Of a DNA stretch of 64,000 bases, positions 1,203-63,311 are shown piece after piece. Both the position numbers and the translations under genes were made by a program. Position 1 is the stretch's first letter. The number at the start of each line of letters is the position of its first letter. Source of the DNA: an uncultured Acidimicrobiaceae bacterium (lineage in GTDB: Bacteria > Actinomycetota > Acidimicrobiia > Spongiisociales > ZC4RG35); assembly GCA_964474055.1 (NCBI GenBank), contig CAYYRT010000407.1:1110-65109 (forward strand), given 5' to 3'. The notes under the pieces are model-generated. The model did not search any database. It worked only from the letters and a program-made list of their open reading frames with translations, and was not told the DNA's origin.

Positions 1203-1218
1203 TGGCACCGTGCTTGCT
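1203..1218 (+). promoter_or_regulatory. Sigma-54 (RpoN) -24/-12 promoter TGGCAC-N5-TTGCT driving operon 1.
   Basis: Exact match to the consensus TGGCAC N5 TTGCW at 1203-1218 in a lower-GC intergenic stretch, directly upstream of the first operon gene. Expected chance frequency in this window is about 0.1. Confidence 0.55.
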
Positions 1219-12685: not shown

Positions 12686-14577
12686 GCGTCCCCGTGCCCT
12701 TCCTTGAAGCGCAGGCGTTCTCCGTCATGGGCGGGCTCGCGCCCGCGCCGGCCCGCCCGGTCACGGGCGAGGCGCTTCGGGCGATGGCTAGGCGCGTGAT
12801 CCAGGAGCCGGGCGCCATCTGCGCAGGGGCCGAGCCGGTCGGTCTGTTCGGCTCCGGCCGGGCCCGGATCGAGCGCGGCGACGCGGTCTGGGTGGCCGCG
12901 GAAGCCGACCTGCTAAACCTGGACGAGCTGCGCGCCGTGGCCGGGCTCGACGAGGCGCAGGCCCAGGCCGGCCTGCTCTCGCGCCTGTACGAGATGGAGG
13001 GGCCTGCGTTCCTCCGGCGGCTGCGCGGCGCCTTCGCTGTGGCGCTGTGGGACCGGCGGCAGCGGGCTCTGCTCCTGGCCGTGGACCCCTTCGGGATGAG
13101 GCGTCTGTACTACGCGGCCGATGTCCGGGGTACCGCCTTCGCGTCGCGCCTGGCCGCGCTGCGGGCCGGCCTCGCCCAGGCAGCGCCCATCGAGCCGGCC
13201 GCCATCTTCAGCTATCTGAACTTCGGCTTCATTCCGGCGCCCGAGACGCCCTTCACCGGCATCCGCCGCGTGCCCCCCGGACACGTGTTCCACGTCCGTC
13301 AGGGCTACAGCAAGCTCGAGCCCTACTGGGACATGAGCTACCCGGAGGAGCGCCACCGGGAGGAACGCGCGGCGGCCAGCTTGTACCGGCTGAGCCACGA
13401 AGCGGTTCGCGAGGCGCTGGCGCAGTCGGATCCGAGCGAGATAGGCGCCTTCCTGAGTGGGGGGACCGACAGCAGCACGGTGGTCGGCCTGATGACCCGC
13501 ATCACGGGGGGGGCGGTCCGCGCGTTCTCGATCGGCTTCCACGAGGATCGTTACGACGAGCTGCAGTACGCGAAGCTGGCCGCGCGGGCTTTCGGCGCGA
13601 CCCATCACACGCGGATCATCAAACCCGACGACGCGCTCGCCGCGCTGCCGCGGCTCGTCGAGGCCTACGACGAGCCCTTTGGCAACAACTCCGCCATCGG
13701 GGTCTACTTCTGCGCGCGCTTGGCCCGCGAGTACGGGGTCTCCCGGCTCCTGGCTGGCGATGGGGGCGACGAGATCTTCGGCGGCAACGAGCGGTACCGC
13801 ACCGATCGCATCTTCGCCCGCTACTCGAGCCTGCCCGCCGCGCTCCGTCACGGATTGCTCGAGCCGGTGCTGCTCGGCCTGCCCGTCGGCGTGCCCGGCA
13901 TCCTGGGCCGGGCCCAGCGCTATATCCGCCGCGCCAACATCCCGAACCCGCGCCGGTTCTACTCCTACGAGTTCCACGTCGCCCAAAACGCGGTTGAGAT
14001 GCTGGAGCCGTCTTTCCTGCGGCAGGCGGCGGCCACGGGGCCGTGGGGCGTGCTCGAGGAGCACTTCGCCCGCGTCCAGGCCAGCTCCGAGCTCAACCGA
14101 CTGATGTACCTCGACCTCAAGCTCACGATCGGCGACAACGACCTCTTCAAGGTCACCCGTACGTCCGAGCTGGGCGGCGTCGAGGTGCGCTTCCCATTCC
14201 TGGACCGGCCGCTGGTCGAGTTCACCGGCACATTGCCGCCCGAGTTCAAGGTGCGTGGGCTCGAGAAGCGGTATCTGTTCAAGCGCTCGTTCCGCGGGCT
14301 CCTGCCGAAGGAGATCCTGGCCAAGCAGAAGCACGGCTTCGGCGTGCCCACGTCCGACTGGCTCCGGAGCCATCGGGGGATTCGCGAGATGGCGCGCGAC
14401 GTCCTGCTGGAGAGCCGGACCGCGGACCGTGGGTATTTCCGGCGCGGAGTTCTGGAGCGCCTGTTCGAGCAGCTCGTCGCGGACAGCACGCCGTTCTACG
14501 GGGACGTCCTCTGGACGCTCCTGATGCTCGAGCTCTGGCACCGCCGTCACGTAGACGGCTGCGGGCTCGGCGGATGA
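12682..14577 (+). CDS. Asparagine-synthetase-like amidotransferase lacking the N-terminal catalytic Cys (degenerate glutaminase domain).
   Basis: Synthetase-domain PP-loop AFLSGGTDSS and conserved AsnB C-terminal blocks are present. The N-terminus has no MCG, HRGPD or YNGEIYN motifs. ATGA overlaps on both sides. Confidence 0.75.
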   Translation: MSVPVPFLEAQAFSVMGGLAPAPARPVTGEALRAMARRVIQEPGAICAGAEPVGLFGSGRARIERGDAVWVAAEADLLNLDELRAVAGLDEAQAQAGLLSRLYEMEGPAFLRRLRGAFAVALWDRRQRALLLAVDPFGMRRLYYAADVRGTAFASRLAALRAGLAQAAPIEPAAIFSYLNFGFIPAPETPFTGIRRVPPGHVFHVRQGYSKLEPYWDMSYPEERHREERAAASLYRLSHEAVREALAQSDPSEIGAFLSGGTDSSTVVGLMTRITGGAVRAFSIGFHEDRYDELQYAKLAARAFGATHHTRIIKPDDALAALPRLVEAYDEPFGNNSAIGVYFCARLAREYGVSRLLAGDGGDEIFGGNERYRTDRIFARYSSLPAALRHGLLEPVLLGLPVGVPGILGRAQRYIRRANIPNPRRFYSYEFHVAQNAVEMLEPSFLRQAAATGPWGVLEEHFARVQASSELNRLMYLDLKLTIGDNDLFKVTRTSELGGVEVRFPFLDRPLVEFTGTLPPEFKVRGLEKRYLFKRSFRGLLPKEILAKQKHGFGVPTSDWLRSHRGIREMARDVLLESRTADRGYFRRGVLERLFEQLVADSTPFYGDVLWTLLMLELWHRRHVDGCGLGG

Positions 14578-17828: not shown

Positions 17829-19147
17829 TGCCAATTCGCGACCTGGGGCTTCTCATAACGGTGATGGTCCTGCTGCCGATATGCATCGTGAGGCCATGGA
17901 TTGGGGTGCTGGTCTGGTCCTGGCTCGGTTACATGAACCCGCATCGGCTCACGTGGGGGTTCGCGTATAGCGTTCCATTCTCGATGATGGTGGCGGTACT
18001 GACTTTGGTGGGATGCGTGTTCACGAGCGAGCGGCGGCCGTTCGTGTGGAGCCGCGAGGTGGTCGCCCTCATGACGCTGTGGCTGTGGTTCGGGATCACG
18101 ACGGTGTTCGCGGTCTATCCGGACACGGCCATGGCAAAGTTTGTCGAGTTTTCGAAGATCATGCTGATGGCGGTTCTCGTCGTGCCGCTCTTCCAGGACC
18201 GGCGCAAGCTGAGGATACTGTTTCTGGTCATCGCGGCGTCGCTCGGCTTCTATGGGGTAAAAGGCGGGCTCTTCGTCTTGCAGACGGGCGGAGAATGGCA
18301 AGTGTTGGGTCCGCCCGGTTCGTTTTTCGAGGCGAATACCGAGCTGGCGCTGGTCTTGAACATGGCCCTCCCGTTGTTGTTCTATCTGGCACGGGAGGAG
18401 TCCCACAAGTGGAGAAGACGTGGCTTGTGGGCGTCATTCCTTCTGACGCTACTTGCCATTCCCTTCACGTACTCGAGAGGTGGCGTGCTGGGCCTGGCGG
18501 TGGTCGTCACGATCCTGTTTTTGAGGGTGCGTCGACGCCTGGTCTGGATCCCAATCATCGCCGTCGGCCTGTTGGCGTTCGCGATCTTTACGCCCGAGAA
18601 ATGGGTGAGTCGAGTCCAGACCATCGAAGAGTACGAGGTTGACGAGTCCGCTCAGCTCAGGTTCATGTCATGGCGAGTGGCGATGATGATCGCAGCGGAC
18701 CGCCCCGTGCTAGGAGGGGGGTTCAAGGTCTTCACGGACCGCGCCACTTATGACATCTATCTTCCCGGATATCCGCGCGCGTTTGGCCACGATGCGCACA
18801 GTATCTACTTCAATCTGCTGGGTGAACACGGCTGGGTCGGGCTCGGGTTGTTCCTACTCCTGGTCGGATTCTCGATGTTGACCCTCCTCAGGATTCGGCG
18901 GCTGGCCAAGGCAAACCCCGAAGTGGCGTGGGCGGGCAACTATGCACATATGGTCCAGGCGAGCCTCGCGGCCTACCTGGTGACGGGAGCATTCATAAGC
19001 GTGGCATATTTCGATCTTGCGTATCAGCTTCTGGTGATGATTCCGGTTCTTCACGTGGTAGCAGTTCGGGAGGTCGCGGCCCGGCAGAGCGCGCCGGTTG
19101 CGCCTCCATTGCCAGGCGCGGCTCGCATTCCCGCAAGAGCCAAGTGA
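17828..19147 (+). CDS. O-antigen ligase / Wzy_C-domain membrane protein (putative polymerase or O-glycosylation ligase, exosortase-system type).
   Basis: About 11 TM helices, a periplasmic-loop block ..FTYSRGGVLGLAVVV.. and a C-terminal region typical of Wzy_C/RfaL-like proteins. Confidence 0.7.
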   Translation: MPIRDLGLLITVMVLLPICIVRPWIGVLVWSWLGYMNPHRLTWGFAYSVPFSMMVAVLTLVGCVFTSERRPFVWSREVVALMTLWLWFGITTVFAVYPDTAMAKFVEFSKIMLMAVLVVPLFQDRRKLRILFLVIAASLGFYGVKGGLFVLQTGGEWQVLGPPGSFFEANTELALVLNMALPLLFYLAREESHKWRRRGLWASFLLTLLAIPFTYSRGGVLGLAVVVTILFLRVRRRLVWIPIIAVGLLAFAIFTPEKWVSRVQTIEEYEVDESAQLRFMSWRVAMMIAADRPVLGGGFKVFTDRATYDIYLPGYPRAFGHDAHSIYFNLLGEHGWVGLGLFLLLVGFSMLTLLRIRRLAKANPEVAWAGNYAHMVQASLAAYLVTGAFISVAYFDLAYQLLVMIPVLHVVAVREVAARQSAPVAPPLPGAARIPARAK

Positions 19148-19148
19148 G

Positions 19149-21020
19149 ATGTGCGGCATCGCCGGTCTGCTCCGGTTGGATGGCGCCCCGGTGGACCCGG
19201 CGATTGTTCGGCGCATGACCGACATTCTGGCCCACCGCGGTCCGGACGGTGAGGGATTCCACGTGGACGGACCGGTGGGGCTCGGCCACCGGCGTCTCGC
19301 GATCATCGACCTGGCGGGGGGCCGTCAGCCGATGGCCACCGCCGATGGAGCGATCTGGATCACGTACAATGGCGAGATCTACAACTACCGCGAGATCCGG
19401 CGAGAGCTGGGCGGTCTCGGCTTCGATCTCCGCTCCGCCTCGGATACCGAGGTCATCCTCGCGGCCTACGAGGCCTGGGGAGTGGGGTGTCTGGGTCGCC
19501 TGCGGGGGATGTTCGCCTTCGCTATCTGGGATGGGCGGCGGCGGCGGATCTTCATGGCGCGGGATCGGGTCGGCATCAAGCCGCTGGTTTACGCCTGGGA
19601 TGGCCGGTGCCTGCGGTTCGCCTCGGAGATCAAAGCTCTTCTCGAGGATCCCGCCGTTTCCCGTGAGCTCGACTGGGGAGCCGTTCGGGACTATCTTACG
19701 CATCACTACGTCTCCGCGCCTCGGACCATCTTCCGCGGAATACAGAAGCTGCCGCCGGCATCGTATCTGCTCTGCTCGCTTGACGGCAGTGAGCCCAAGG
19801 TTGAGAGCTATTGGGACCTGCACATGGCGCCGGACGCGAGTCTCAGTGAGAGCGACTGGACTGAGCAGCTCGAGTACCTCCTGAACGAGACCGTCCAGCT
19901 CCATATGGTCAGCGACGTTCCGGTGGGTGCCTTCCTCAGCGGTGGGATCGATTCCAGTAGCGTGGTGGCCTGTATGGCCCGCGCATCCGCCGGTCCAGTG
20001 AAGACGTTCTCTATCGGTTTCGACGAGCAGAACTTCGACGAGCTACGGTACGCGCGCCTGGTCGCAAAACGGTACGGAACCGAGCACTTCGAGATGATCG
20101 TGAAGCCCGACGTGATGAGCGTCCTGCCCCGCCTGGCTTGGCAGTTTGACGAGCCATTCAGCGATGCCTCGGCGATCCCAACGTACTGCGTAGCGAAGGT
20201 CACTCAGGAGCATGTAACCGTTGCTCTCTCCGGCGACGGCGGCGATGAGAGCTTCGCCGGATACCGCCGCTATGCCCATGCGTTGGATCTGCATCGCCGG
20301 ATCGACCGGACGCCGGCTTCTCTCGCCAAGCCTCTACTCCGGTGGGCCGCCGCCCGGCGGAGCCCAGGGGCCCGGGGGCGCGAGTTCATGGCGCTGCTCG
20401 GCATGTCGCCACTGGACCGATATCACCGGATGATGACGTATCAGTCGGAGGAAACGCTGGCGGCCCTGTTGACGCCCGAAGCCACCGCAAACGTGGTGCT
20501 CGACGCGGGGTCGACGGGATTCGGGCGCCTGGCGGCCGCGGCGGGCACCGACGACTACCTTTCGATGCTTCAGTACATAGACGTCCACCACTACTTGCCC
20601 GGGGACATCCTGACCAAGGTGGACCGGACGAGCATGCTCACATCGCTCGAGGCCCGAGTGCCGCTGCTCGACCACGTGCTCATGGAACACGCGGCCCGTA
20701 TGCCCTCCGACGCCAAGCTCCGAGATGGGATGGGGAAGCACGTCCTGAAAGAAGCGATGCGACCTCACCTGCCGGCGGAGATCCTGGACCGTCAGAAGAT
20801 GGGGTTTGGTGTGCCTCTGGCTACGTGGTTCCGAAAGGACCTGAAGGACTTCGCGCGTGACCTTCTGGCGGATCACCGAACCCGACAACGAGGGATCCTG
20901 CGGCCCGACACCGTGAGTCACTTGTTGGATATACACATCACCGGGAACCGTGACTACTCGTCTCAGCTGTGGTCCTTCATCTGCCTCGAGCTCTGGTTTC
21001 GTACGTGGTGGGACAAGTAA
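19149..21020 (+). CDS. asnB: Asparagine synthetase (glutamine-hydrolysing) family amidotransferase.
   Basis: MCGIAG N-terminus, HRGPDGEG, RLAIIDL, YNGEIYNY and PP-loop AFLSGGIDSS. Confidence 0.85.
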   Translation: MCGIAGLLRLDGAPVDPAIVRRMTDILAHRGPDGEGFHVDGPVGLGHRRLAIIDLAGGRQPMATADGAIWITYNGEIYNYREIRRELGGLGFDLRSASDTEVILAAYEAWGVGCLGRLRGMFAFAIWDGRRRRIFMARDRVGIKPLVYAWDGRCLRFASEIKALLEDPAVSRELDWGAVRDYLTHHYVSAPRTIFRGIQKLPPASYLLCSLDGSEPKVESYWDLHMAPDASLSESDWTEQLEYLLNETVQLHMVSDVPVGAFLSGGIDSSSVVACMARASAGPVKTFSIGFDEQNFDELRYARLVAKRYGTEHFEMIVKPDVMSVLPRLAWQFDEPFSDASAIPTYCVAKVTQEHVTVALSGDGGDESFAGYRRYAHALDLHRRIDRTPASLAKPLLRWAAARRSPGARGREFMALLGMSPLDRYHRMMTYQSEETLAALLTPEATANVVLDAGSTGFGRLAAAAGTDDYLSMLQYIDVHHYLPGDILTKVDRTSMLTSLEARVPLLDHVLMEHAARMPSDAKLRDGMGKHVLKEAMRPHLPAEILDRQKMGFGVPLATWFRKDLKDFARDLLADHRTRQRGILRPDTVSHLLDIHITGNRDYSSQLWSFICLELWFRTWWDK

Positions 21021-22151: not shown

Positions 22152-24074
22152 GTGTGCGGCATCAACGGCGTTGTCTACACGGATCCGCGCCATCCCGTGG
22201 ATCGCGCCCTGCTACGTCGTCTCACCACGACGCTGGCCCACCGGGGACCGGATGCCGACGGCTTCTTCTGGGAAGAAGGCGCCGCCCTGGGCCACCGTCG
22301 GCTCAGTATCATCGACCTCTCCACTGGCGATCAGCCAATCTTCAACGAGGACGGCACCAAGGCGGTGGTCTTCAACGGCGAGATCTACAACTTCCACGAG
22401 CTGCGAGCCGATCTCACCGCGCTTGGCCATCGCTTCGCTACGGCTTCCGACACCGAAGTGCTCGTCCACGCCTGGGAGGAGTGGGGCGACGGGTTCGTGG
22501 CCCGGCTGCGAGGTATGTTCGCTTTCGCCCTCTGGGATCGCCGCCACCGCCGGCTCCTCCTGGCCCGCGACCGGGTGGGCAAGAAGCCGCTCTACTACAT
22601 CCACGATGAGGAGAGGCTGCTCTTCGGCTCGGAGTTGAAGGCCCTTCTCGGCGATCCGTCGGTGAAGCGAGCCGTCAATCTGGAGGTGCTGGACGACTAC
22701 CTCACCTTTGGCGCGGTGCCGGCCCCGCGCACGATCTACCAAGGTATCCAGCAGATCCTGCCGGCGCACTACCTGGTCTGGGAAGGTGGGCGGGTCCGCA
22801 CGACTGAGTACTGGGATCTCACGTATCGCTCCGGCCCGGCGCGCGGGGAAGCGGCCTGGTTGGAGGAGTTCGAGGACATCTTCAGCGAGGCGGTGCGGCT
22901 TCGCATGATTTCAGATGTACCGCTGGGCGCCTTTCTCTCCGGTGGCGTGGACTCGAGCGCGGTGGTGGCAGCGATGGCCGCCCAGGCCTCGCGGCCGGTC
23001 ATCACGACGAACGTCTCCTTCGCCGAAAGCGCCTTCGACGAGGCGTCCCACGCCCGGACCGTGGCCCGCGCGCTGAATACCGAGCACCATGAGCTCCTTG
23101 TCGAGCCGCGGGGCGCGGACATTCTTCCTGCACTGGTCTGGCATCTCGACGAGCCCTTTGCCGACTCCTCGGCGATGCCGACGTACTACGTCGCCCGCGC
23201 AGCTCGGCAGCGCGTGACGGTGGCCCTGTCTGGTGACGGTGGGGACGAGATCTTCGCAGGCTACCAGTGGCGCTACGGCTTGAACCTGGTCGAAGCGCGC
23301 CTCAGGCGGCTGATCCCGGGCCCGGTCCGCCGCAACCTGCTGGGTCCGCTCTCTACGGTGTGGCCCAAGGCGGACCGTCTGCCGCGCCCGCTGCGGTGGA
23401 AGTTCCTCCTGCGGAACCTAAGCCTCGAGGCCGAGCACGCCTACTTCCATGATATGAGCCTCTTCACGGCCGCCGATAAGCGGGGACTCTTGACCGATGG
23501 GTTCCAGCGCACGCTCAACGGTTACGATCCCTATCCCGCCTTCCAGAGACACTTTGACCGAGTACGCGGCGCCGATCACCTCAGCCGGCTTCTCTACGTG
23601 GATCTCAAGACCTGGCTGCCCAACGACATCCTGGTTAAGATGGATCGAATGGCTATGGCCAACTCCCTCGAGGTCCGGTCACCGCTCCTCGATCACAAAG
23701 TCATTGAGTTCGCCGCGACCCTGCCCTCGGAGCTCAAGTACCGCGGAACCACCTCGAAGTACTTGCTCAAGCGCTACACCGAGCGGCGGGTCCCGGCCTC
23801 GGCCGTCCACCGTCCGAAGATGGGCTTCTCCATACCGCTAGCGACCTGGCTGAGGCGCGAGCTACGTCCGACGGCGGAGCAGTTACTCCTCTCCGAGCGC
23901 GCGCTCGAGCGGGGCTATTTCCGACCGGCTCAGATCGGAGCGATGTGGGCGCGTCATCAGGACGGTAGCCACGACCACTCGCACCATCTGTGGGCGCTGA
24001 TGATGCTCGAGCTGTGGCACCGGCTCTTTGTCGATCAAGCGCCAACTCTGACCGCGCCGGATGCTGCGCGATGA
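22152..24074 (+). CDS. asnB: Asparagine synthetase (glutamine-hydrolysing) family amidotransferase.
   Basis: GTG start then CGINGVV, HRGPDADG, RLSIIDL, FNGEIYNF, PP-loop AFLSGGVDSS. Confidence 0.85.
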   Translation: MCGINGVVYTDPRHPVDRALLRRLTTTLAHRGPDADGFFWEEGAALGHRRLSIIDLSTGDQPIFNEDGTKAVVFNGEIYNFHELRADLTALGHRFATASDTEVLVHAWEEWGDGFVARLRGMFAFALWDRRHRRLLLARDRVGKKPLYYIHDEERLLFGSELKALLGDPSVKRAVNLEVLDDYLTFGAVPAPRTIYQGIQQILPAHYLVWEGGRVRTTEYWDLTYRSGPARGEAAWLEEFEDIFSEAVRLRMISDVPLGAFLSGGVDSSAVVAAMAAQASRPVITTNVSFAESAFDEASHARTVARALNTEHHELLVEPRGADILPALVWHLDEPFADSSAMPTYYVARAARQRVTVALSGDGGDEIFAGYQWRYGLNLVEARLRRLIPGPVRRNLLGPLSTVWPKADRLPRPLRWKFLLRNLSLEAEHAYFHDMSLFTAADKRGLLTDGFQRTLNGYDPYPAFQRHFDRVRGADHLSRLLYVDLKTWLPNDILVKMDRMAMANSLEVRSPLLDHKVIEFAATLPSELKYRGTTSKYLLKRYTERRVPASAVHRPKMGFSIPLATWLRRELRPTAEQLLLSERALERGYFRPAQIGAMWARHQDGSHDHSHHLWALMMLELWHRLFVDQAPTLTAPDAAR

Positions 24075-36647: not shown

Positions 36648-36994
36648 GATATCGATACCGGCTTTCTCTCATCGGTGCGGTCCTCTGGAGCGTGTCCCTG
36701 ATACCAAGCGGCTACGTCGACGACAGGCCTCGAAGCGCGCAGGCCCAGGGCGCCCCCGGGCGGGAGCCGAGTCCCGGCTCGTCTCAGGATGCCGGTGTCT
36801 CCACCCCGCTCAACCCGACCGCTGGCGCCCACATGGACAGCTATGACTACGATAGGCGGAACCGCGTCATAGTCAGCACGAGCTACGGGGAGAGCCAGTT
36901 CCGGATGTGGGTCTGGAGGCCTGATGACAGTGTCTGGAGGGAACTGCCCGTCGACACCCGCCCGACCGAGCTGTGGGCCTGGGGCTATCGGTGA
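36644..36994 (+). CDS. Hypothetical small secreted protein.
   Basis: Signal-peptide-like MRYRYRLSLIGAVLWSVSLIPSG. ATGA overlap with the upstream gene. Confidence 0.4.
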   Translation: MRYRYRLSLIGAVLWSVSLIPSGYVDDRPRSAQAQGAPGREPSPGSSQDAGVSTPLNPTAGAHMDSYDYDRRNRVIVSTSYGESQFRMWVWRPDDSVWRELPVDTRPTELWAWGYR

Positions 36995-37008
36995 AAGCCC
37001 GCGAAGCC

Positions 37009-39993
37009 ATGAACCGCTTGACCTTCGTTGCGGCCCTGGTGTCCTTCTGCGTGCCCATCTTCGTTCCCGGGCCGTCCGCGACGGAGCCCGGCGGGTCCGC
37101 GGGGGAGGTCTCGATCGTCTATTCCCGTTGCCTCCGGATGGAACGCGCGGCTCCAGTCACTCACACCGTGGTCGTGAACGGTAGGCCGGTCAAGGTAGAC
37201 AAATCGCTGGGCCACTCGGATGTGCTCGATGTCCTGCCCGATATCAGTAACTTCTTCGGGGGGTTCACCGCACCCTGTGACCTCATCCTCCGCAATGGGT
37301 CCGGGGCAGAGCGGGTCCTGTACGATTGTGCCTCACGGTCGACGGACCAGGGTGCGTGCGCAGCCCTTGACGCTGCCGTGTCGTTCGACGCGAAGACCAT
37401 TGCCTTCGCAGTCTTTCGAGGTCCGATCCAGCGGCGTACCCTCGATCTCCCTCCCAAGTTCTTTCATCCCGCCGCGGCCGACGGCAGATCTCTGCGGATT
37501 GCCCTCCCCAACGCCTACCTCGAGAGTCGTGAAGCCCAGCTCTTCCTCGTGGATGTCGCCACCGGCAGAGTGACCGGTCTCCCTCACCGCGCCGGCGTCT
37601 TCGACTCCGGTCCGGCGTGGCTCTCGAATGGTCGGCTGGCATTCACCTCCACGCGGAGCGGCCAGTTCTCCACTTTGGTCTCCGACCTTCAGCGCCCCGC
37701 CTCACAGATCTTCACGAGCGATCCGGATGGGCGCAACGTCGAGAAGGCCAGCTATCATGCGCTTGCCGGGGAGCAGCATCCGTTTCAGCTGAAAGACGGG
37801 CGTGTCGCCTTGAGTAGCTGGCAGCTCTTTGGAATGCTGCCGTATCGGAACGACAACGGCTCCGCCGGTAGCTTCGGCACGCTCGACAACTTCTTCCACG
37901 TCTACTCCCAGCATCCGGACGGGGCGAATCCGTTTCCCCTCTTTGGCCAGCACACCACGAATCTGGGAACCTACCCGAGCCCATACCCCGCCCACTTTGC
38001 CGCCCATTTCGCCACGCAGGGCAGCGACGGCCGGTTCTGGGTGGCCGATTACTATCGCGGCAACAATTCCGGTCTCGGACAGGTCGTCGGCTTCCCCCTG
38101 CCGCCGATCGGCCAGGAAGGCATCGCTCCCAATCGCGCGTCTCATCTTCATGACATCTATCGACCCGAAGGGTTTACCATGCTCACGCGGTGGGCGAGCG
38201 GTTTCGACGCCATGGCCGGGCCTATGCCCCCGCCGTCGGTCCGGCTTCCCACGTATCGCGATCCGCTCGCCCTCGTCGGCAAGATCAGCCATCCGGCCGC
38301 GTTGCCGAAGAACGCGCTACTCATCACCTGGGCCGCGGGCGGTTGCAGTACCGTGACCGGCGGGTACCTGGAGATGGAGATGCTGACCCGCTTGGGCCGA
38401 GACAACCCCGGATGCGACGCCGGCATCTACCGGACGTCGCGCATTCCGTCGCGGCATCCATCCGATCTTGTCCAGATCGTGAATCGCCGCGAGTATCACG
38501 AGATCATGGCGCGGGCCGTGGTTCCGTACTCCGTCATCTACGGCATCGAGAAGCCCGCTGCCATTCCTCGGGCGGAGCTGGCCGCGGCGGGTGATCCGGA
38601 CCTCGTGCCCGGTACCCCGTTCGGTGTTCTCGGCGCCTCATCGATCATCCTCCGCGAGACGCGGCCGGTAGGCGGAATCCCGTTTTCGGGGACGCCCTTC
38701 GCCTTCAGTCTCCAGGGAACGGACACCGTCGACTACAAGGACGAGGAGCTGTGCGGTATCCGGATTCTCGCCGTGCAGCCGAACCAGCGCGAGGAGTACA
38801 AGCGGTACAAGACGACCGTCGGCGAGCGGGTCGTGATCCTGGGCGAGTTCCCGGTACACAAGAGGGACCGCGCCGGGAACTCTCCTCGCGACCCGACCGG
38901 CGCACCCGATACCTCTTTCAAGGTGCGCTTCCCCGCCAATACCCCATACCTGATGCAGGGGATCGATTGCCTGGGCCGCACCTTGAATACCGACCAGACG
39001 TGGCAGCACCTCAGGCCGGGCGAGCTGAAGACCTGCAATGGCTGTCATGTTCATGGCAAGGAGGGACTGCCCTTCAACAAGACCGCCGCCGCTGATCCCG
39101 GGTATCGAGCGGTTCGCCTGGGCGAGGGCAGCGTCCCATTGCTGGCAGGCGGCTCGCGGGCATCGGTTCAGGTGGTGAGCAGGCCCGGGTACGGCCTACA
39201 GTTCGAATTCGAGCGCGACGTGTTTCCCATTTTCCAGCGCCGTTGCGCGGGCTGTCATTCGGGCACCGCGCCGGCCGCCGGCGTGGTGCTGGACCTTCCC
39301 GGGACCGGACCTGGGTCCACGTACGATCGCCTTGTCCGGGATCGCGGGCAGCGATTCGTGCCGGACGGCCGCCGCTACCCCCATCCTATCCGCAAGCCCC
39401 AGCTGACGAAATACGTCCGCGCCCTCAACGCTCGCGGCAGTCTGCTCTACTGGAAGGCCATCAACCAGCGAACCGACGGCCGGACCGACACAACGTACAC
39501 GCGCGCGGCCGGTCCAGGATGGGAAGACGTGGACTTCGGGCCCTCCCATCCGACGAGCATCACCCCGGAGGAGCTGGCCACCCTCTCCAGATGGCTCGAC
39601 ACGGGTGCGGCCGCCCAGGCCGGTTTCCTTGCCGACACCACGCCTCCTACTCTGCACCTGGCCGCGGGTGTTCACGGTCAGGCGGTGACCACTCTTTACG
39701 TCGGAACCGTGGATGTTTTTAGCGGCATTGATCAGGCGTCCCTCGAGGTCTGCGTGGTGGCCGGCGATGGCCGTTGTGGTCCGAACCTGGCGCCCAGGGC
39801 CGACCCCGCCGGCGTTGTGAGCATCAGCTTCCGAGAGCCGATTTCCAGCCCGGATGTCGAGGTTCGCGGACGCGTGCGCGACCTGGCCGGTAACGAGACG
39901 CAAGTCCAACACACCTTAGGATGGCTAGTCGAGAACACGGCCCCAGGCCGCCAGACGCCCACGGCGGGGGCTTCCGGTGCTCCCCGTCGATAG
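37009..39993 (+). CDS. Large (~995 aa) secreted beta-propeller protein with two CxxCH motifs and a PSCyt1-like C-terminus (putative c-type cytochrome domain protein).
   Basis: Signal peptide MNRLTFVAALVSFCVPIFVPG, PD40/TolB-like repeats, CNGCH and CAGCH motifs, C-terminal ..ITPEELATLSRWLDTGAA. Confidence 0.6.
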   Translation: MNRLTFVAALVSFCVPIFVPGPSATEPGGSAGEVSIVYSRCLRMERAAPVTHTVVVNGRPVKVDKSLGHSDVLDVLPDISNFFGGFTAPCDLILRNGSGAERVLYDCASRSTDQGACAALDAAVSFDAKTIAFAVFRGPIQRRTLDLPPKFFHPAAADGRSLRIALPNAYLESREAQLFLVDVATGRVTGLPHRAGVFDSGPAWLSNGRLAFTSTRSGQFSTLVSDLQRPASQIFTSDPDGRNVEKASYHALAGEQHPFQLKDGRVALSSWQLFGMLPYRNDNGSAGSFGTLDNFFHVYSQHPDGANPFPLFGQHTTNLGTYPSPYPAHFAAHFATQGSDGRFWVADYYRGNNSGLGQVVGFPLPPIGQEGIAPNRASHLHDIYRPEGFTMLTRWASGFDAMAGPMPPPSVRLPTYRDPLALVGKISHPAALPKNALLITWAAGGCSTVTGGYLEMEMLTRLGRDNPGCDAGIYRTSRIPSRHPSDLVQIVNRREYHEIMARAVVPYSVIYGIEKPAAIPRAELAAAGDPDLVPGTPFGVLGASSIILRETRPVGGIPFSGTPFAFSLQGTDTVDYKDEELCGIRILAVQPNQREEYKRYKTTVGERVVILGEFPVHKRDRAGNSPRDPTGAPDTSFKVRFPANTPYLMQGIDCLGRTLNTDQTWQHLRPGELKTCNGCHVHGKEGLPFNKTAAADPGYRAVRLGEGSVPLLAGGSRASVQVVSRPGYGLQFEFERDVFPIFQRRCAGCHSGTAPAAGVVLDLPGTGPGSTYDRLVRDRGQRFVPDGRRYPHPIRKPQLTKYVRALNARGSLLYWKAINQRTDGRTDTTYTRAAGPGWEDVDFGPSHPTSITPEELATLSRWLDTGAAAQAGFLADTTPPTLHLAAGVHGQAVTTLYVGTVDVFSGIDQASLEVCVVAGDGRCGPNLAPRADPAGVVSISFREPISSPDVEVRGRVRDLAGNETQVQHTLGWLVENTAPGRQTPTAGASGAPRR

Positions 39994-40060: not shown

Positions 40061-41281
40061 TTACCGCTTTCCTCCAGGCGGGTCGCTCCTTGTAAAGCGG
40101 TACGCCCACGTTCGCCTCCCGGAGGCCGCGTCGGTGAGGAAGATATAGAGATTGTTGATGGGGTCGTAGTCCAGTGCGTGAAACGCGAGGGTGCCGATCT
40201 TGGCATCCTGCGTCGACGACGCTTGCATGCGTTGTGAGGTCCAGTGTTTCGTCAAGGGATCATAGGCGTAAAACGTTCCGTCGAGGACTCCACCGCCGAT
40301 GACCATGTTGGCGGCGTCGTAGGCCCATCCTGATTCCTGTGAGTTGGGAATGTCTCCCGTCATCCCCGTCACCTCCGACACCCGTGGTCCCTTCGATGCA
40401 ACTTCGAAGACCCGGGTCGGCGATCCGCGGGCGACCAGGTACATCCTCCGGTTCGGAGGAAAATAGACCAGGTTATTCGCGTATCCGACGGTGGCGGGTA
40501 CATCTGCCAACGTGTCCACCTTCTGAGTCGCCGGATCGTACCGCCATAGACGTCCAGGACTAGCATTGACGCCGAGCCCGATGATCAGGATCAACTTAGA
40601 CTCGGGATCGTACTCCGCGGCCGCTGCGTAGTACCACGTGCTATCCGCAGGGGCGCGACTATATGTCCATCGTGGTGTCGCCGATAGGAGGTCGTAGTGA
40701 GCGATCTTCGCTCGTCCAGGAATCCCACCACTCGTCAGGATGATGAAGTGCTTCTCATTTCCCACCTCGGCTACCGCCAGCATGTCATAGGTATGGCGGA
40801 CGACCGGGTGCCCGGTACTGATCCACGCGCCTCTCTCCGTGTCATTGTTGGCAGCGGTCATTGCCGCCGCGGGAGTCGAGCGATACAGACTCCCCCATTT
40901 CAGCGTATTTAGGTCGAAGGCAGCGATATCCGTCCGGATCGCCGGCCCGTGCCCGCCACCGAACATGAGCATCCGATGATGGTGGGAGTCGTACCGGAAG
41001 CCACTGTAGTCGGTGATGAACTCGCACCCGGTGGGACGGTCAGCTGGCTCACTGCAGGTATAGCGTCCCAGATCCAGAGCCGTGCCGGGAGGAATATTCT
41101 GCAGGGTTGGGTTTGGACGGGGCATGACGCTTCCCCCCGATCGGTCCCTCTCCGTCTTTGCCTCCCGGTACTGCACCGACCGAACCGTCTGCGGCTCGGC
41201 AAGCGCAGCCGCCAGCGCGCACTCCCCCAACACCAGCGTCAGCACCATCACAACCACCCTACTCCCCCAGCTCCAGTTCAC
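40061..41281 (-). CDS. Secreted hypothetical protein, probable beta-propeller (Kelch/galactose-oxidase-like).
   Basis: GTG start with an AAGGAGG RBS, signal peptide, repeated Gly/Trp/Tyr-rich blade-like segments. Confidence 0.5.
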   Translation of the reverse strand: MNWSWGSRVVVMVLTLVLGECALAAALAEPQTVRSVQYREAKTERDRSGGSVMPRPNPTLQNIPPGTALDLGRYTCSEPADRPTGCEFITDYSGFRYDSHHHRMLMFGGGHGPAIRTDIAAFDLNTLKWGSLYRSTPAAAMTAANNDTERGAWISTGHPVVRHTYDMLAVAEVGNEKHFIILTSGGIPGRAKIAHYDLLSATPRWTYSRAPADSTWYYAAAAEYDPESKLILIIGLGVNASPGRLWRYDPATQKVDTLADVPATVGYANNLVYFPPNRRMYLVARGSPTRVFEVASKGPRVSEVTGMTGDIPNSQESGWAYDAANMVIGGGVLDGTFYAYDPLTKHWTSQRMQASSTQDAKIGTLAFHALDYDPINNLYIFLTDAASGRRTWAYRFTRSDPPGGKR

Positions 41282-41362: not shown

Positions 41363-42592
41363 CTATCGCCTCACGTCGGGACGGATAGGCCCGCTCGGCC
41401 GCTCGATCGCTCCGGTGCTGGCCGGGACTCGTCGCGGGGTACCGAAAAAGTCATCGTCCACCTGGGTCCGGTCAACCCCTGGTATCGCGGCGCCGATGAG
41501 TAAGGAGCCGAGGAACGGCGAAAAATCAAGCCCTTCGGTGTTCGCGAAGCAGGCCACCCACGTGCAGTTCACGTTGCCCAGGAGACGGAGACCGGGGCGA
41601 GCGGCAGGCAGGACCGGGGTGCCGACCCGGCCATGAACTGCGTTGTTCAGGATCGATGCCTCCACCGGTTCATTGTCTGCGATCCAGATGGCCGCCTGCC
41701 GGTTGCCGTAGACGCTATTGTGCGCGACGATGACCCCACGCAGAAGACCCCGACCCTGATAGTTTTCGAGTCCGATGCCCGCTTTGAAGTTGCCGACGGC
41801 CACGTTGTTCCGCACCAGTACCGGTCCACCCGCGATCACGATGCCGGACGAGGTGCGGGATCCGGATACGAAGTTGCGCTCGACCACGCTCATATTTAGC
41901 AGATCGCGCGCGCCATAGACCATGATGCCGGGGCCTTTGGTGTCTTGAATCATATTGCCCCGGATGACGCCGGACGAGTTCAGCTTCACCTGGAGGCCAT
42001 AGCCCACCTCGGAGCCGGACGCGCTCACCCCCTGAATGTGGTTGCCCTCCACGACCAACCCCGAGATGGTGCACCCAAACCCGTCGTGGCACCCGAAGTA
42101 CATGCCGGTAGCGAGGGACTCGGCGATCACGTTGCGTCTCACGGCTAGCCCGTGCACGCTGGCGTGGGTCGATGCGACTGCGATCCCGCCCAGCTGGAAA
42201 AATCGACAGTCCTCGATCGTGATCCGGTTCCCTGACATGATCCGGATGCCATCCGCCTCGCCGAAGTTTCCCCAGAATTCAAGGCCCCGGATTGTGACGT
42301 CGCTCGCCTTGACCTCGAGCAAGTTGACCGGGCGGCCCGAATACGACAGGCGCGGTCGACGCGCGGGATCGGCGGCCCGGATCACGAGGGGCAGCCCAAT
42401 CTGCCCCCCCCGGTGGATCACGCAGCCCGCCCGATAGTCGCCTGCTTCGAGCACGAGCTCTTCGCCCGGCGCCAACGACTGAATGGCGACGCAGAGATCC
42501 GTCGCGGGGCCGATTTCGAGACCACGAGCGGGAGCGGGAGAAAGAGCGAAGACGGTAAGCAGGAGTGCCAGACCGATGAGCGCAGGCATCAA
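41363..42592 (-). CDS. Secreted right-handed parallel beta-helix repeat protein (pectin-lyase fold). Candidate polysaccharide lyase, epimerase or hydrolase.
   Basis: Signal peptide MMPALIGLALLLTVFALSPAPA. Repeated ..GN.I.DC.., ..RNNV..GN.. and ..HNSVYGN.. beta-helix coil motifs. Confidence 0.6.
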   Translation of the reverse strand: MMPALIGLALLLTVFALSPAPARGLEIGPATDLCVAIQSLAPGEELVLEAGDYRAGCVIHRGGQIGLPLVIRAADPARRPRLSYSGRPVNLLEVKASDVTIRGLEFWGNFGEADGIRIMSGNRITIEDCRFFQLGGIAVASTHASVHGLAVRRNVIAESLATGMYFGCHDGFGCTISGLVVEGNHIQGVSASGSEVGYGLQVKLNSSGVIRGNMIQDTKGPGIMVYGARDLLNMSVVERNFVSGSRTSSGIVIAGGPVLVRNNVAVGNFKAGIGLENYQGRGLLRGVIVAHNSVYGNRQAAIWIADNEPVEASILNNAVHGRVGTPVLPAARPGLRLLGNVNCTWVACFANTEGLDFSPFLGSLLIGAAIPGVDRTQVDDDFFGTPRRVPASTGAIERPSGPIRPDVRR

Positions 42593-42717
42593 CTCTCATC
42601 TTACACGAGCCTTGGCGGCCGCTTTTCACTTCCCCGCGCGGATCGGAGGATCACGGTGGAAGCGTGCTAGACTGAGCGCGCCGTCCAAGCCTGCTGCCCG
42701 GCAAGGTGGCGTCACAT

Positions 42718-43140
42718 ATGGCGGACAAGCTCGAACCGAGCCCTCATCTCTACGAGGAAGACGACCTGCGTCATCTTCTCGCCAGGGAGGTGCTGCGTTC
42801 GACGCGCTACCAGGATTTCCTCACGCTATGCCTCATCCGGGTCGCGTCGGCGGAGCCCTCCCTCCGGGACGCGATCGCTCGACAGGTCGCCGAGATGCTG
42901 CGATCCACTGACCTGGTCGGGAGCATCGGTGAGGATATCGCGGTGTTGCTCGTTCACACCCCGGATACGGAGGCGATCATGATCGCCTCCCGAATCCGTG
43001 ACCGAATCGACCGCCCGTCCGTGCCTCCCTCGGCCGGCGCGGTCGTCCTCCACATTGGGCTGGCGTGCTTTCCGGTCGACGGCACGAGCGATGACGCACT
43101 CCTGGCGTGTGCCCAAGCTCGCCTGGAGACGGCGCGGTGA
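42718..43140 (+). CDS. Stand-alone degenerate GGDEF-domain protein (I-site RSTD retained, A-site GEDIA). Putative c-di-GMP receptor.
   Basis: ..RSTDLVGSIGEDIAVLLVHT...RIRDRI......LHIGLACFPVDG..ALLACAQARL matches the C-terminal half of GGDEF. AAGGTGG RBS upstream. Confidence 0.55.
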   Translation: MADKLEPSPHLYEEDDLRHLLAREVLRSTRYQDFLTLCLIRVASAEPSLRDAIARQVAEMLRSTDLVGSIGEDIAVLLVHTPDTEAIMIASRIRDRIDRPSVPPSAGAVVLHIGLACFPVDGTSDDALLACAQARLETAR

Positions 43141-43222
43141 GGCGCCGGAAGGCACTATCTGGGTTGTGAGGGGAGCGCAAGTCGGCTAGGATCGCGGTCC
43201 AGACGGAGGTGGTGACGGCGGC

Positions 43223-43861
43223 ATGGCTCTCTACATGGTCGAACGCGATCTCAATCATGTCGCGCCCGAGCAGTTTCGCCTCGACCAGAAAGACATCGCC
43301 TCCGCCTGCTTCCAGCTCAAGGCGCGGGGCAAGCGCATCCGGTACATCAGCAGCGCGGTGGCACCCGCGGACGGCCGCGCCTTCGATCTCTTCGGCGCGG
43401 ACGACGCCGAGCTCGTCACGGATGCCCACGCAACCGCGGGCGTCCAGTATCTCCGGATTGTCGAGATCCTTGACCTGACACCAAGCTTCATCCAGCGCAG
43501 CACGTCTCGTCCGCGACGACCCCCCGAGTGGGCCGCCGGGGGTGCGGACTGCGCGGGTAAAGCGAAAGGGGCCACGCACGCCATGACCGTGAACCCAGAG
43601 TTGACACGATGGCTCTCCGAGGGCCAGCGGCTCTTCGGCGTATGTCTGGAGACGCTCGAGAACCTCGAGCGGCTGCAGACCGAGAACACCATGCTCCGAG
43701 AGGAAACGGCCCGCCTGCGCCACCGCGTTGACCTCCTGCAGACCGATCGGGCCGAGATGGTGGCGGCCTTCAATGACCTCGCGGGCCACGTTACCCAGGT
43801 TGTGGACCACATCATCCAGAAATCCGAGGATGGCGAGGGAAGCGCAGCCACCGGGGCATAG
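43223..43861 (+). CDS. DUF4242 (SCO4226-like) domain protein with a C-terminal coiled-coil extension.
   Basis: MALYMVERDL..FDLFGADDAELVTDAH..IVEILDLTP resembles the DUF4242 family. C-terminal heptad-rich segment LETLENLERLQTENTMLREETARLRHRVDLLQ. Confidence 0.45.
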   Translation: MALYMVERDLNHVAPEQFRLDQKDIASACFQLKARGKRIRYISSAVAPADGRAFDLFGADDAELVTDAHATAGVQYLRIVEILDLTPSFIQRSTSRPRRPPEWAAGGADCAGKAKGATHAMTVNPELTRWLSEGQRLFGVCLETLENLERLQTENTMLREETARLRHRVDLLQTDRAEMVAAFNDLAGHVTQVVDHIIQKSEDGEGSAATGA

Positions 43862-44280
43862 CCTCCGGAGTGTAAGACTTACACCCGAGGTCGAAAAGTT
43901 CCCACTAACCGGGAAGGGGGAAGACGGATGCGTTTGACCCCCAACCCTGCCTGCGTCAAGAATCCTCTTACTCCAGCTTGAGGTCCCATATGTGCAAATG
44001 AGCTGTGCATACAACGCGGCCCGCCGTGTTCGGAGTAAATCGTCTCCTGAGTCGACAGGTTGATCGTCGCCTTAACTTACTGATAAACATGAGAGAGTTT
44101 GCGGGAGCGCGTTTCGATCGAGGGATGCACTCTCGTGTCACCGTGAAGCGGCCATCACATTCCTTCACGGTCCACGCAATAGTTGCGGTAGATGACCTGA
44201 GACTCAAGTATCGGAATAATATACGTTTATGTTCTCACCGGCCCTGTGGCGTCAGCAACATTCAGATCGTCCGTCAGAAA

Positions 44281-44310
44281 GGAATGGGATTTCCCATTAT
44301 GTGAATGGAA
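44281..44310. promoter_or_regulatory. Inverted-repeat cluster AATGGGA-TT-TCCCATT plus CCATT-N5-AATGG about 90 bp upstream of the sigma-54 -24 element. Candidate enhancer (UAS) for a bEBP.
   Basis: Perfect 7-bp arms with a 2-bp spacer at 44283-44298 and an overlapping second IR to 44308. Same distance and similar sequence to the repeat at 1103-1122. Confidence 0.35.
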
Positions 44311-44378
44311 TTGCCGGGCTATGGACTGAGTCTCGCCTGTTAGAACGGGCACTTGAACGGACTGGGTACTTTGCGGGG

Positions 44379-44394
44379 TGGCACCTAATTTGCT
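44379..44394 (+). promoter_or_regulatory. Sigma-54 (RpoN) -24/-12 promoter TGGCAC-N5-TTGCT upstream of the enhancer-binding-protein gene.
   Basis: Exact consensus match 63 bp upstream of ATG 44457, at the 3' end of a low-GC 600-bp leader. Confidence 0.6.
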
Positions 44395-44456
44395 TAATCT
44401 AATCACGCAACTCCTATGGCCCACCTTTCATACCCAGAGTAACGGAAGACGAAGCG

Positions 44457-45847
<1,391 letters not shown>

Positions 45848-45851
<4 letters not shown>

Positions 45852-47437
45852 GCGACGCGCTGCGCGGCCTGGACGACGGCGATGCCGCTCCGCGCGGGGG
45901 CTCGGCCCTCGACCGCCTCCGGCAGGCCTGGAGCCGGCGCAAGTGGCTCGGCATCCTGGTGGTCCTGCTGCCCCTCACCGCGGGCGTCAGCGTCATCATG
46001 GCCCTGCCCGATCTCTACCAGTCCACCGCCCTCGTCATGATCGAGCGGCAGCAGGTGCCCGAGGCCTTCGTCCGCCCGACCATCACCAGCCAGCTCGAGA
46101 TCCGCCTCCAGACGATCAGCCAGGAGATCCTGAGCCGCTCGCGGCTCGAGGCCCTGATCCAGCGATTCAATCTCTATCCCGAGATGCGGACGCCCGCGTC
46201 GAGCGAGCAGGCGGTGAACCGGCTCCGGACCGACATCCGCCTGGAGCTGAAGTCCAGCGACAACAACCGCGCCGGCACCACGACCGCCTTCGCGCTGTCG
46301 TACCGGGGGCGCGATCCCCAGACCGTGGCGCAGGTGACCAATACCCTGGCTTCCTTCTACATCGAGGAGAACCTCAAGGCGCGCGAGCGGCAGGCGACGG
46401 GCACCGCGGAGTTCCTGCGGGTCCAGCTCGCGGACGCCAAGAGGCGCCTCGACGAGCAGGAAGCGCGGGTGAGCGAGCTGCGCCGCCGCTACATCGGCCA
46501 GCTCCCGCAGCAGATGCAGGGCAATCTCGCCACGCTGGACTCCCTCACCCAGCAGCTCCGGATCAACAGCGACAACCAGGTGCGGCTCGTCGAGCGGCGA
46601 GACCAGCTCGCGGCCCAGCTCACGCAGGTGCGCGCCATGTCCGGCGATGAGACCGATGAGATGCGGCTGGCCCGGTTCAAGCGGGAGCTGGCCACGCTCC
46701 GCATCAAGTACACGGATCTCTGGCCGGACATCATCCGGCTCAAGGACGAGATCGCCACACTGGAGAAGCAGATGGCCGAGCCGAAGCCCAAGAGTACGGC
46801 CAAGACGCCCCTGCCTCCCAGCCCGGAGGTCATGCGGGTGCAGGAGATGCTGGGAATGGCCGAGACCGAGCTGAAGCTGGCCAAGCAGGACGAGCAGCGG
46901 ATCCGCCGCGCGATCGACGTGTACCAGACACGAGTCGACAACGCGCCGCGGAGCGAGCAGGAGTTCCAGGAGATGACCCGGGACTACCAGGCGACCCGGG
47001 AGCTCTACCAGACGCTCTCCAAGCGCTACGACGAGGCCCTGCTCGCCGAGAGCATGGAGCAGCGGCAGAAGGGCGAGCAGTTCCGGGTGCTCGATTCCGC
47101 ATTGCCCTCGTCCGTGCCCACCGCGCCCCGGCGGTCGCGGCTGCTGCTGGCCTGCATCGCGCTGTCGCTGGCCCTCGGGGCCGGGGCGGTGGTGCTCGCC
47201 GAGATGCTCGACACCTCGTTCCACTCGACCGACGACCTGCGCGCCTACACCACCGTCCCCGTGCTGGTCAGCATCCCGCGGATCCTGACCCAGTCGGACT
47301 CGCGCCGGGAGCGGTGGCGGTTCCGCTTCGCGACGGTGGGGGTGCTGGTGTGCCTCGTGGTGGTCGCGGGCTCCTGCTACATCTTCGCCTACGGCAACGA
47401 GCAGCTCGCCCAGCTCCTCTCACGCGGAAAGGCCTGA
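45848..47437 (+). CDS. Polysaccharide chain-length determinant (Wzz/GumC-like, PEP-CTERM-locus subfamily).
   Basis: N-terminal TM ..WLGILVVLLPLTAGVSVIMAL.., long periplasmic coiled-coil and a C-terminal TM ..LLACIALSLALGAGAVVLA... ATGA overlap with the regulator gene. Confidence 0.75.

Positions 47438-60556: not shown

Positions 60557-63311
<2,755 letters not shown>

Follow-up and report, generated by a model that had tools for sequence, protein, structure and literature searches.

A stand-alone degenerate GGDEF protein with a conserved I-site, a candidate cyclic di-GMP sensor encoded beside sigma-54 activators of exopolysaccharide loci

In a 64,000-nucleotide stretch of contig CAYYRT010000407.1 (the window), a gene coding for a small stand-alone GGDEF protein, here called sGGDEF, was analyzed together with its homologues and its gene neighborhood. 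The protein is predicted to have lost the active site (A-site) of diguanylate cyclases and to have kept the allosteric inhibitory site (I-site), and its gene is repeatedly found upstream of genes encoding sigma-54 enhancer-binding proteins in exopolysaccharide (EPS) loci. We propose that sGGDEF is an I-site-only sensor of cyclic di-GMP (c-di-GMP), which supplies the missing input to these sigma-54 EPS activators, and give this proposal about an even chance of being correct. The binding of c-di-GMP by sGGDEF seems more likely than the step in which an activator is targeted.

Two subfamilies of stand-alone homologues were identified. The first one comprises 88 clusters with 45-100% identity to the window protein. 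The second one comprises 343 clusters of proteins with a length of about 163 amino acids, which share about 40% identity with the sGGDEF of the window and have a canonical-looking GGNxVV end. Nearly all homologues consist of 140-180 amino acids, and all named ones derive from metagenome-assembled genomes (MAGs) of Rokubacteria/Methylomirabilota or from soil and sediment metagenomes.

The conservation of the I-site was counted in 211 of these stand-alone homologues, 91 belonging to subfamily 1 and 120 to subfamily 2. For this, the sequence of PleD was checked against its PDB chains and then aligned to the sGGDEF family using HMMER and MAFFT. The two arginines of the primary site, R62 and R92, are invariant (211/211 each), and the aspartate D65 is kept in 209 of the 211 proteins. 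R27, the equivalent of the secondary-site arginine, is found in all 210 homologues which cover the position. The earlier note on this DNA had described a retained RxxD motif next to a lost A-site and had proposed an alignment of orthologs to check the conservation of RxxD. The alignment bears this out, as R62, D65 and R92 are kept, the catalytic residues are gone and the A-site position drifts freely. As judged from these counts, the I-site is under far stronger constraint than the A-site. The RxxD motif is present in just 57% of cyclases (PMC4215984), and it is therefore not a structural requirement of the GGDEF fold. The family also has an invariant motif of its own, T29-R30-Y31-Q32-D33-F34, which has no known role in I-sites.

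A near-invariant cysteine, Cys38 (42829-42831, in strand beta1), was observed as well (88/90 in subfamily 1 and 120/120 in subfamily 2). It is located three residues before Arg41, the replacement of the metal-binding Asp, and also has no known role in I-sites.

The residues needed for catalysis are missing in several places. At the position of the Mg2+-binding Asp, about 97% of the homologues have an arginine or a lysine. The segment which carries the guanine-binding residues N335 and D344 in PleD is absent and is replaced by a shorter, variable stretch. The sequence GEDIA (residues 71-75, 42928-42942) follows RSTD in the 140-residue protein, both being located where the earlier note had placed them. 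Within it, -G71-E72-D73-I74 aligns to G368-G369-E370-E371-F372 of PleD with one glycine missing; a register in which GEDIA corresponds to GGEEF was ruled out by the profile alignment. In subfamily 1, any residue can occur at position 72, and G71 is found in 72 of the 91 sequences. Overall, the GGDEF position reads G-x-D-I/V in subfamily 1 and x-D-G-I in subfamily 2 (120 sequences). With Arg41 in place of the Asp corresponding to PleD D327, no guanine-binding loop and a GGDEF motif short of one Gly, catalysis by sGGDEF is excluded on sequence grounds.

The fold was analyzed by profile searches and by structure prediction. The Pfam model GGDEF (PF00990) matches residues 56-143 with 29.9 bits (gathering score 23.8, E 5.5e-7), and TIGR00254 is just under its cut-off (36.1 vs 37.4). 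A profile built from 29 family members matched 26 solved GGDEF chains. The best one is 6d9m, a Geobacter Rec-GGDEF protein, in which residues 17-141 of the family profile align to the whole GGDEF domain (177-311) with an E-value of 1.4e-10. An AlphaFold2 (AF2) model computed from the family alignment reached a predicted local distance difference test score (pLDDT) of 87.5 and a predicted template modeling score (pTM) of 0.82. It shows a disordered region at residues 1-13, followed by helices at 14-31, 47-60, 83-98 and 125-139 and strands at 35-42, 66-70, 73-79 and 111-118. In a Foldseek search of this model against the PDB, the top 50 matches were GGDEF domains without exception (50/50), with TMq values of 0.66-0.84 and E-values down to 4e-9. 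The best TM values, 0.77-0.84, were obtained for 4urg, 4iob and other solved GGDEF domains.

According to the model and the Foldseek matches, the palm-like beta-alpha-alpha-beta-beta-alpha-beta-alpha core is present. Compared with 6d9m, the family profile lacks about 10 residues in the stretch from beta1 to alpha2, where the GTP-binding loop is trimmed. The beta4-beta5 hairpin is replaced by a short variable loop, and subfamily 1 also lacks the C-terminal strand. The protein consists of one domain throughout, with neither a membrane anchor nor an additional docking domain. The earlier note had taken it for the C-terminal half of a GGDEF domain. This has to be corrected, because the full-domain profile alignment, the confident AF2 model and the Foldseek matches together predict that sGGDEF is a whole but compact GGDEF fold. 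The 88 and 343 homologue clusters, the scores of the AF2 model and the best Foldseek E-value also establish that sGGDEF is a genuine gene, beyond chance.

The translation start of sGGDEF was assigned to the ATG at 42718, which lies 8 nt downstream of a Shine-Dalgarno-like sequence and matches the equivalent Met at which the homologues start. A GTG at 42706 was rejected as start codon, as it falls within the Shine-Dalgarno sequence and the homologue starts favor the ATG. An extension to a full cyclase was also discarded, because the reading frame ends upstream at a TAG (42673-42675), which agrees with the earlier statement that there is no in-frame extension upstream. An Rfam scan of the region 42400-44600 gave just two sub-threshold chance matches.

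An exhaustive profile search against 1.84 billion representatives resulted in 17 matches below 1e-30 and 498 below 1e-10. The best 150 representatives include many more proteins of 145-190 amino acids with a degenerate A-site, in which R-x-(T/S)-D-h-h-G and ERIR are kept. Fusions of sGGDEF-like domains to HD-GYP (HD_5), GAF and Roadblock domains were found among these 150; a fusion to a sigma-54 AAA+ domain was not found among them. Small degenerate GGDEF proteins which keep RxxD may thus form a broad and overlooked class, since annotation pipelines label them 'diguanylate cyclase' or 'hypothetical'. Three metagenomic proteins of about 570 amino acids (P0235, P0241 and P0248) carry an HD-GYP-type domain (Pfam HD_5) after two tandem degenerate GGDEF domains, which keep RxxD and are close relatives of sGGDEF. 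Domains of the HD-GYP type act as c-di-GMP phosphodiesterases.

The gene order links sGGDEF to sigma-54 activators. In 14 of the 16 informative loci an activator gene with the same orientation is located downstream of the sGGDEF gene, and the two arrangements in which this occurs are unrelated; a further contig, L015, was too short to be informative. The type-1 order is shared by the window and seven further independent loci (L001, L002, L004, L005, L012, L013 and L014). It consists of sGGDEF, a gene for a companion protein with an SCO4226-like domain and a coiled coil, a spacer of 580-690 bp with a sigma-54 promoter, the activator and an XrtA-type chain-length determinant. In two of these loci, L004 and L014, sGGDEF and the coiled-coil gene are separated by an oppositely oriented Cupin_8-like gene. 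The type-2 order belongs to subfamily 2 and was found in L006, L007, L008, L010, L011 and L016. Here, a first activator with receiver, AAA+ and helix-turn-helix (HTH) domains is followed by a sigma-54-type promoter, sGGDEF, a second activator, a Wza-like exporter and a priming transferase. The gap between sGGDEF and the second activator is only 8-11 bp. The distance from the sigma-54-type promoter to sGGDEF is about 118 bp in L006, L007, L008 and L011 and about 193 bp in L010, these being the five loci scanned. No sigma-54 promoter was found upstream of sGGDEF in the window or in any other type-1 locus.

Contrary to the earlier note, sGGDEF is not immediately upstream of the sigma-54 regulator in the window, since the companion gene and the spacer lie between its stop codon at 43140 and the regulator ATG at 44457. 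The companion gene is located 3′ of sGGDEF in all 8 type-1 loci and is absent from the type-2 loci. Its product has a conserved TSR(P/S)RR linker and, at the C-terminus, a coiled coil whose conservation is very strong (...EMVAAFNDLAGHVTQVVDHI.QKSEDGE). By eye, the c-di-GMP motif E-x3-S-x2-R-x3-Q-x3-D of RsiG was not seen in this coiled coil. On the other side, sGGDEF is divergent from a beta-helix gene (41363-42592, minus strand), as described before, whose product has a signal-peptide-like N-terminus. The genes at this position vary among the orthologous type-1 loci (beta-helix, UDP-glucose dehydrogenase or epimerase), so the beta-helix gene is not a conserved partner of sGGDEF.

The activators downstream of sGGDEF have atypical receiver domains in both arrangements. 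In the receiver of the window activator (44457-44840) the acidic DD pair is lost, the conserved Thr/Ser is replaced by Ala, and three amino acids are deleted after the acceptor Asp. The same changes are present in 7 of 7 orthologues, in which the acidic pair reads A-(T/A/G) and the acceptor Asp is always kept; the Lys is kept in six of the seven and is a Thr in L005. The domain is probably a pseudo-receiver. In type-2 loci, the activator downstream of sGGDEF has a receiver-like domain with an Asn at the acceptor position. Both activators located 3′ of sGGDEF thus look unable to take an ordinary phosphoryl input. As their receivers lack the canonical chemistry, they would need some other input. 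A histidine kinase, including PrsK-like ones, was not found among the open reading frames scanned in the window.

With respect to its family, the window activator scores 348.9 against TIGR02915 (PrsR), below the cut-off of 502.6, and it reaches higher scores with the generic models for NifA, AtoC and NtrC. A FleQ-like LFRS motif was also considered in this protein. The candidate sequence 'LWRSP' lies about five residues off the FleQ register, and it was not used as evidence. In L007 the reading frame of the upstream activator (5380-5700) apparently shifts close to the C-terminus, so that the Fis-type HTH is read in a different frame; this is probably an error of the long-read assembly and not biology.

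From these observations the following mechanism can be proposed. Selection has kept just the allosteric I-site face of sGGDEF, formed by R62-x-x-D65, R92 and the secondary-site R27. An intercalated c-di-GMP dimer bound at the RxxD/R92 site would act as a bridge. This bridge would lead to R27 of a second sGGDEF, in a ligand-dependent dimer like that of isolated cyclase domains, or else to arginines in a partner protein. The likeliest partner and output would be the co-located sigma-54 enhancer-binding protein, which would drive the sigma-54 promoters of the XrtA/PEP-CTERM-type EPS locus, its own promoter included. In type-1 loci the coiled-coil companion protein may join in. 

A more specific form of this mechanism follows from PleD, in which the c-di-GMP dimer held by RxxD/R390 forms a cross-link to arginines in the protein's own pseudo-receiver domain. 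By analogy, sGGDEF could be the detached half of a PleD-like clamp, with c-di-GMP gluing it onto the pseudo-receiver of the activator and thereby switching oligomerization or ATPase activity. We put this forward as a tentative and rather unlikely refinement. If true, two proteins and a second messenger would take the place of phosphorylation in an enhancer-binding protein, a scheme which would apply to at least two EPS systems of Rokubacteria and perhaps more widely to metagenomic mini I-site GGDEF proteins.

Several points weigh against sGGDEF as the c-di-GMP sensor of the activators. Neither an active cyclase or phosphodiesterase nor any other GGDEF domain was found in the window, and no literature linking Rokubacteria to c-di-GMP was found. 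The host organisms, by our attribution, are uncultured Rokubacteria known from metagenomes alone. FleQ, VpsR and EpsI/Nla24 bind the nucleotide themselves; as the known responsive sigma-54 activators bind c-di-GMP directly, a separate sensor is not required. Two loci, L009 and L017, carry the sGGDEF gene without an activator nearby. Furthermore, the gene and the promoter-bearing spacer between sGGDEF and the activator in the window make a co-regulation of the two indirect.

An explanation which needs no contact with the activator is that sGGDEF is a c-di-GMP receptor acting post-translationally on the polysaccharide machinery, similar to PelD or BcsE. Its target would be a tyrosine autokinase, the chain-length determinant, a glycosyltransferase or the exporter, and its linkage to the activator would only reflect the shared EPS locus. 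The I-site evidence fits this equally well, the characterized dead-GGDEF receptors from EPS loci all act on synthesis machinery (PMC8461298), and the type-2 operon continues into the Wza-like exporter and the priming transferase. However, the sigma-54 activator is the sole neighbor common to both gene orders, whereas the EPS enzymes differ, with an XrtA-type chain-length determinant in type 1 and a Poly_export protein in type 2. The short gap of the type-2 loci suggests co-translation with the second activator, and an anchor or docking domain which could bring sGGDEF to the machinery is missing. This explanation is regarded as unlikely.

It is likewise improbable that sGGDEF acts without a ligand, as an anti-activator or co-activator in which the conserved Arg and Asp residues and the TRYQDF motif form a protein-protein interface. 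The synteny with the sigma-54 activators is compatible with this, the TRYQDF motif and C38 have no role in known I-sites, and some degenerate GGDEF domains do not bind c-di-GMP, e.g., TmoK (PMC4877007). On the other hand, the invariant residues are exactly the three c-di-GMP contacts of PleD and PelD plus the secondary-site Arg, and retained ligand binding accounts for them more economically than a chance reuse of all four.

Very unlikely is the binding of another nucleotide at the I-site face, such as pGpG, 3′3′-cGAMP or (p)ppGpp, or a function of sGGDEF as a c-di-GMP buffer without a specific partner. The best sequence match among solved structures, 6d9m, is a protein which we take to be GacA, a cGAMP-producing Hypr cyclase. 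PleD has been crystallized with (p)ppGpp (9g85 and 9g86), and the two orphan loci would suit a buffer. Nevertheless, sites of the RxxD plus R390 type are known solely as c-di-GMP sites, and the gene order is conserved, which speaks for a specific partner. Finally, there is practically no room for an active diguanylate cyclase or a decaying cyclase fragment, for which just the Pfam and TIGRFAM GGDEF matches and names like 'diguanylate cyclase (GGDEF)-like protein' speak, as the catalytic residues and the guanine-binding loop are lost, the motif varies across the family, the upstream stop codon bars an extension, and a protein which shows strong purifying patterns and has stayed a stand-alone of 140-180 amino acids in over 400 clusters is not a pseudogene.

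The features of the window which are relevant to sGGDEF, the activator and their promoters are listed in Table 1.

Table 1. Coordinates of sGGDEF, its conserved sites and the associated regulatory and EPS features in the window.
Feature	Position	Strand	Basis or remark
sGGDEF, 140-aa stand-alone, catalytically dead (by sequence) mini-GGDEF	42718-43140	+	ORF, Pfam, AF2, Foldseek, homologues
Shine-Dalgarno-like AGGTGG	42704-42709	+	8 nt 5′ of ATG 42718; direct sequence reading
R27 codon, secondary I-site Arg equivalent (PleD R313; T. maritima tDGC R115)	42796-42798	+	MAFFT mapping to PleD
R41 codon, in place of the Mg2+-binding Asp (PleD D327)	42838-42840	+	alignments
RSTD, RxxD primary I-site motif (R62, D65; residues 62-65)	42901-42912	+	aligns to PleD R359/D362
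G71-E72-D73-I74, degenerate GG(D/E)EF remnant, one Gly deleted	42928-42939	+	profile alignments
R92 codon, third primary I-site residue (PleD R390 equivalent; PelD R402 analogue)	42991-42993	+	HMMER alignment to PleD
Companion gene, 212 aa, SCO4226-like (DUF4242) N-terminal domain and C-terminal coiled coil	43223-43861	+	Pfam PF14026, E 4.8e-8
Conserved 595-bp regulatory spacer	43862-44456	+	alignment of 8 orthologous spacers, invariant blocks
Spacer palindrome GTGTAAGACTTACAC	43870-43884	+	conserved block
NtrC-site-like TGCA-N9-TGCA in spacer	43993-44009	+	conserved block
Spacer element CGCAATAGTTGCG	44175-44187	+	conserved block
GGAA-N6-TTCC in spacer	44281-44294	+	conserved block
Exact sigma-54 -24/-12 promoter TGGCACCTAATTTGCT	44379-44394	+	63 bp 5′ of activator ATG
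Sigma-54 enhancer-binding protein (receiver, AAA+, Fis-type HTH), atypical receiver	44457-45851	+	Pfam
XrtA-system polysaccharide chain-length determinant	45848-47437	+	TIGR03007 294.6 vs cut-off 278.85; synteny
Second exact sigma-54 promoter	1203-1218	+	18 bp 5′ of ATG 1235 (MLRIFRHY...), unusually short leader

The spacer upstream of the activator looks like a multi-site enhancer region, as indicated by its conserved blocks. In addition to those listed in Table 1, an IHF-like sequence ATCAAGTACTTG is present in the spacer consensus and is degenerate in the window. The sigma-54 promoter is conserved in 8 of 8 aligned spacers, L005 and L012 reading TGGCAT, and it is found in the same place in, among others, L001, L002/3 and L004. 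The 5′-untranslated region (5′-UTR) which follows it is conserved as well. The exact sequence TGGCAC-N5-TTGC occurs twice in the 64 kb, compared with 0.03 expected occurrences, and both copies are located just upstream of gene starts. The gene downstream of the second copy, which starts at the ATG 1235 and opens a long array on the plus strand, encodes an XrtA/PEP-CTERM priming glycosyltransferase (TIGR03013, 483.4 vs cut-off 393.35) and is likely a target of the sigma-54 circuit.

The window is an XrtA/PEP-CTERM-type exopolysaccharide locus, with the markers TIGR03007, TIGR03013, TIGR03006 (deacetylase) and TIGR03098 (acyl-CoA ligase) all above their cut-offs. The start of the chain-length determinant gene overlaps the stop codon of the activator gene (ATGA). 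Four paralogous asparagine-synthase-like genes are also located in the window (12682-14577, 19098-21020, 22152-24074 and 61401-63311). They score below the cut-off of TIGR03108, the XrtA/PEP-CTERM amidotransferase, and above that of the generic asparagine synthase. A further gene (36973-39993; 3677-6661 in L001) codes for a protein of about 1000 amino acids without an NCBIfam match, for whose L001 ortholog a precomputed Pfam match to HZS_alpha (hydrazine synthase alpha-like) exists. It adjoins on the 5′ side the genes for a secreted Kelch-like protein (40061-41281) and the Pel9A-like beta-helix protein (41363-42592).

I-site c-di-GMP receptors with a dead GGDEF domain are already known, always inside larger proteins which carry the output, and the control of sigma-54 activators by c-di-GMP is known solely through direct binding to the activator. 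No literature was found on a stand-alone degenerate GGDEF protein acting on an enhancer-binding protein. Unreported so far are a single-domain, minimal I-site protein, its tight, repeated linkage to activators with non-canonical receivers and the occurrence of both in an uncultured phylum. If the proposed function is true, sGGDEF would be a minimal I-site receptor made of a single domain of 140-160 amino acids and a trans-acting adaptor for enhancer-binding proteins whose receivers seem to be non-phosphorylatable. This would give a first handle on the regulation of large XrtA/PEP-CTERM EPS loci in an uncultured soil phylum. Being small, soluble and confidently predicted, sGGDEF lends itself readily to binding and structural studies.

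Among the known systems, T. maritima tDGC (4urg/4urs), PleD and WspR are the closest relatives of sGGDEF by fold and sequence, with the same primary site and the same secondary Arg. An isolated GGDEF domain dimerizes through two c-di-GMP molecules which bridge RxxD and the secondary Arg (PMC4215984). However, tDGC, PleD and WspR are active enzymes with a GGDEF or GGEEF motif, the metal-binding Asp and a guanine-binding Asn/Asp, all of which are lost in sGGDEF. With these catalytic residues gone, its inhibitory site would have nothing left to inhibit.

PelD is a dead GGDEF protein from an EPS locus whose c-di-GMP binding needs R367, D370 and R402 (PMC8461298), i.e., RxxD and a third Arg, the equivalents of which are kept in sGGDEF as R62, D65 and R92. 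In contrast to the soluble single domain of 140 amino acids described here, PelD is a membrane protein which has four transmembrane helices as well as a GAF domain and exerts its effect on the synthase complex. It is absent from the detectable sequence relatives and from the top 50 structural matches of sGGDEF, which is linked to transcription activators. PopA, SgmT and BcsE use an RxxD-type I-site in dead GGDEF domains as well. PopA of Caulobacter and SgmT of Myxococcus resemble sGGDEF in the degenerate A-site and the retained RxxD, and in them the binding of c-di-GMP serves protein recruitment or localization, not catalysis. Their GGDEF domain is the C-terminal part of a multidomain response regulator or kinase, whereas sGGDEF is a single domain which also lacks the GTP-binding loop. 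The earlier comparison with PelD and PopA thus holds for the functional likeness, a kept I-site and a dead A-site, and does not extend to descent or architecture, as the nearest relatives in sequence and fold are ordinary cyclases and the additional domains of PelD and PopA are missing. BcsE, a GIL or degenerate GGDEF protein of enterobacterial cellulose secretion, is a large multidomain protein which acts on the secretion machinery and has no detectable sequence relationship to sGGDEF.

On the side of the activator, PrsR (TIGR02915) has the same domain order as the window activator, which is also encoded in an XrtA/PEP-CTERM-type EPS locus. The window activator differs from it in scoring below the equivalog cut-off and in having a receiver without an acidic pocket. 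Finally, c-di-GMP controls EPS through the NtrC-like activators FleQ, VpsR and EpsI/Nla24. The likeness to the system proposed here is that c-di-GMP would govern an NtrC-like EPS activator, and the difference is that FleQ, VpsR and EpsI/Nla24 bind c-di-GMP themselves, whereas here a separate, small and putative I-site protein is encoded near the activator.

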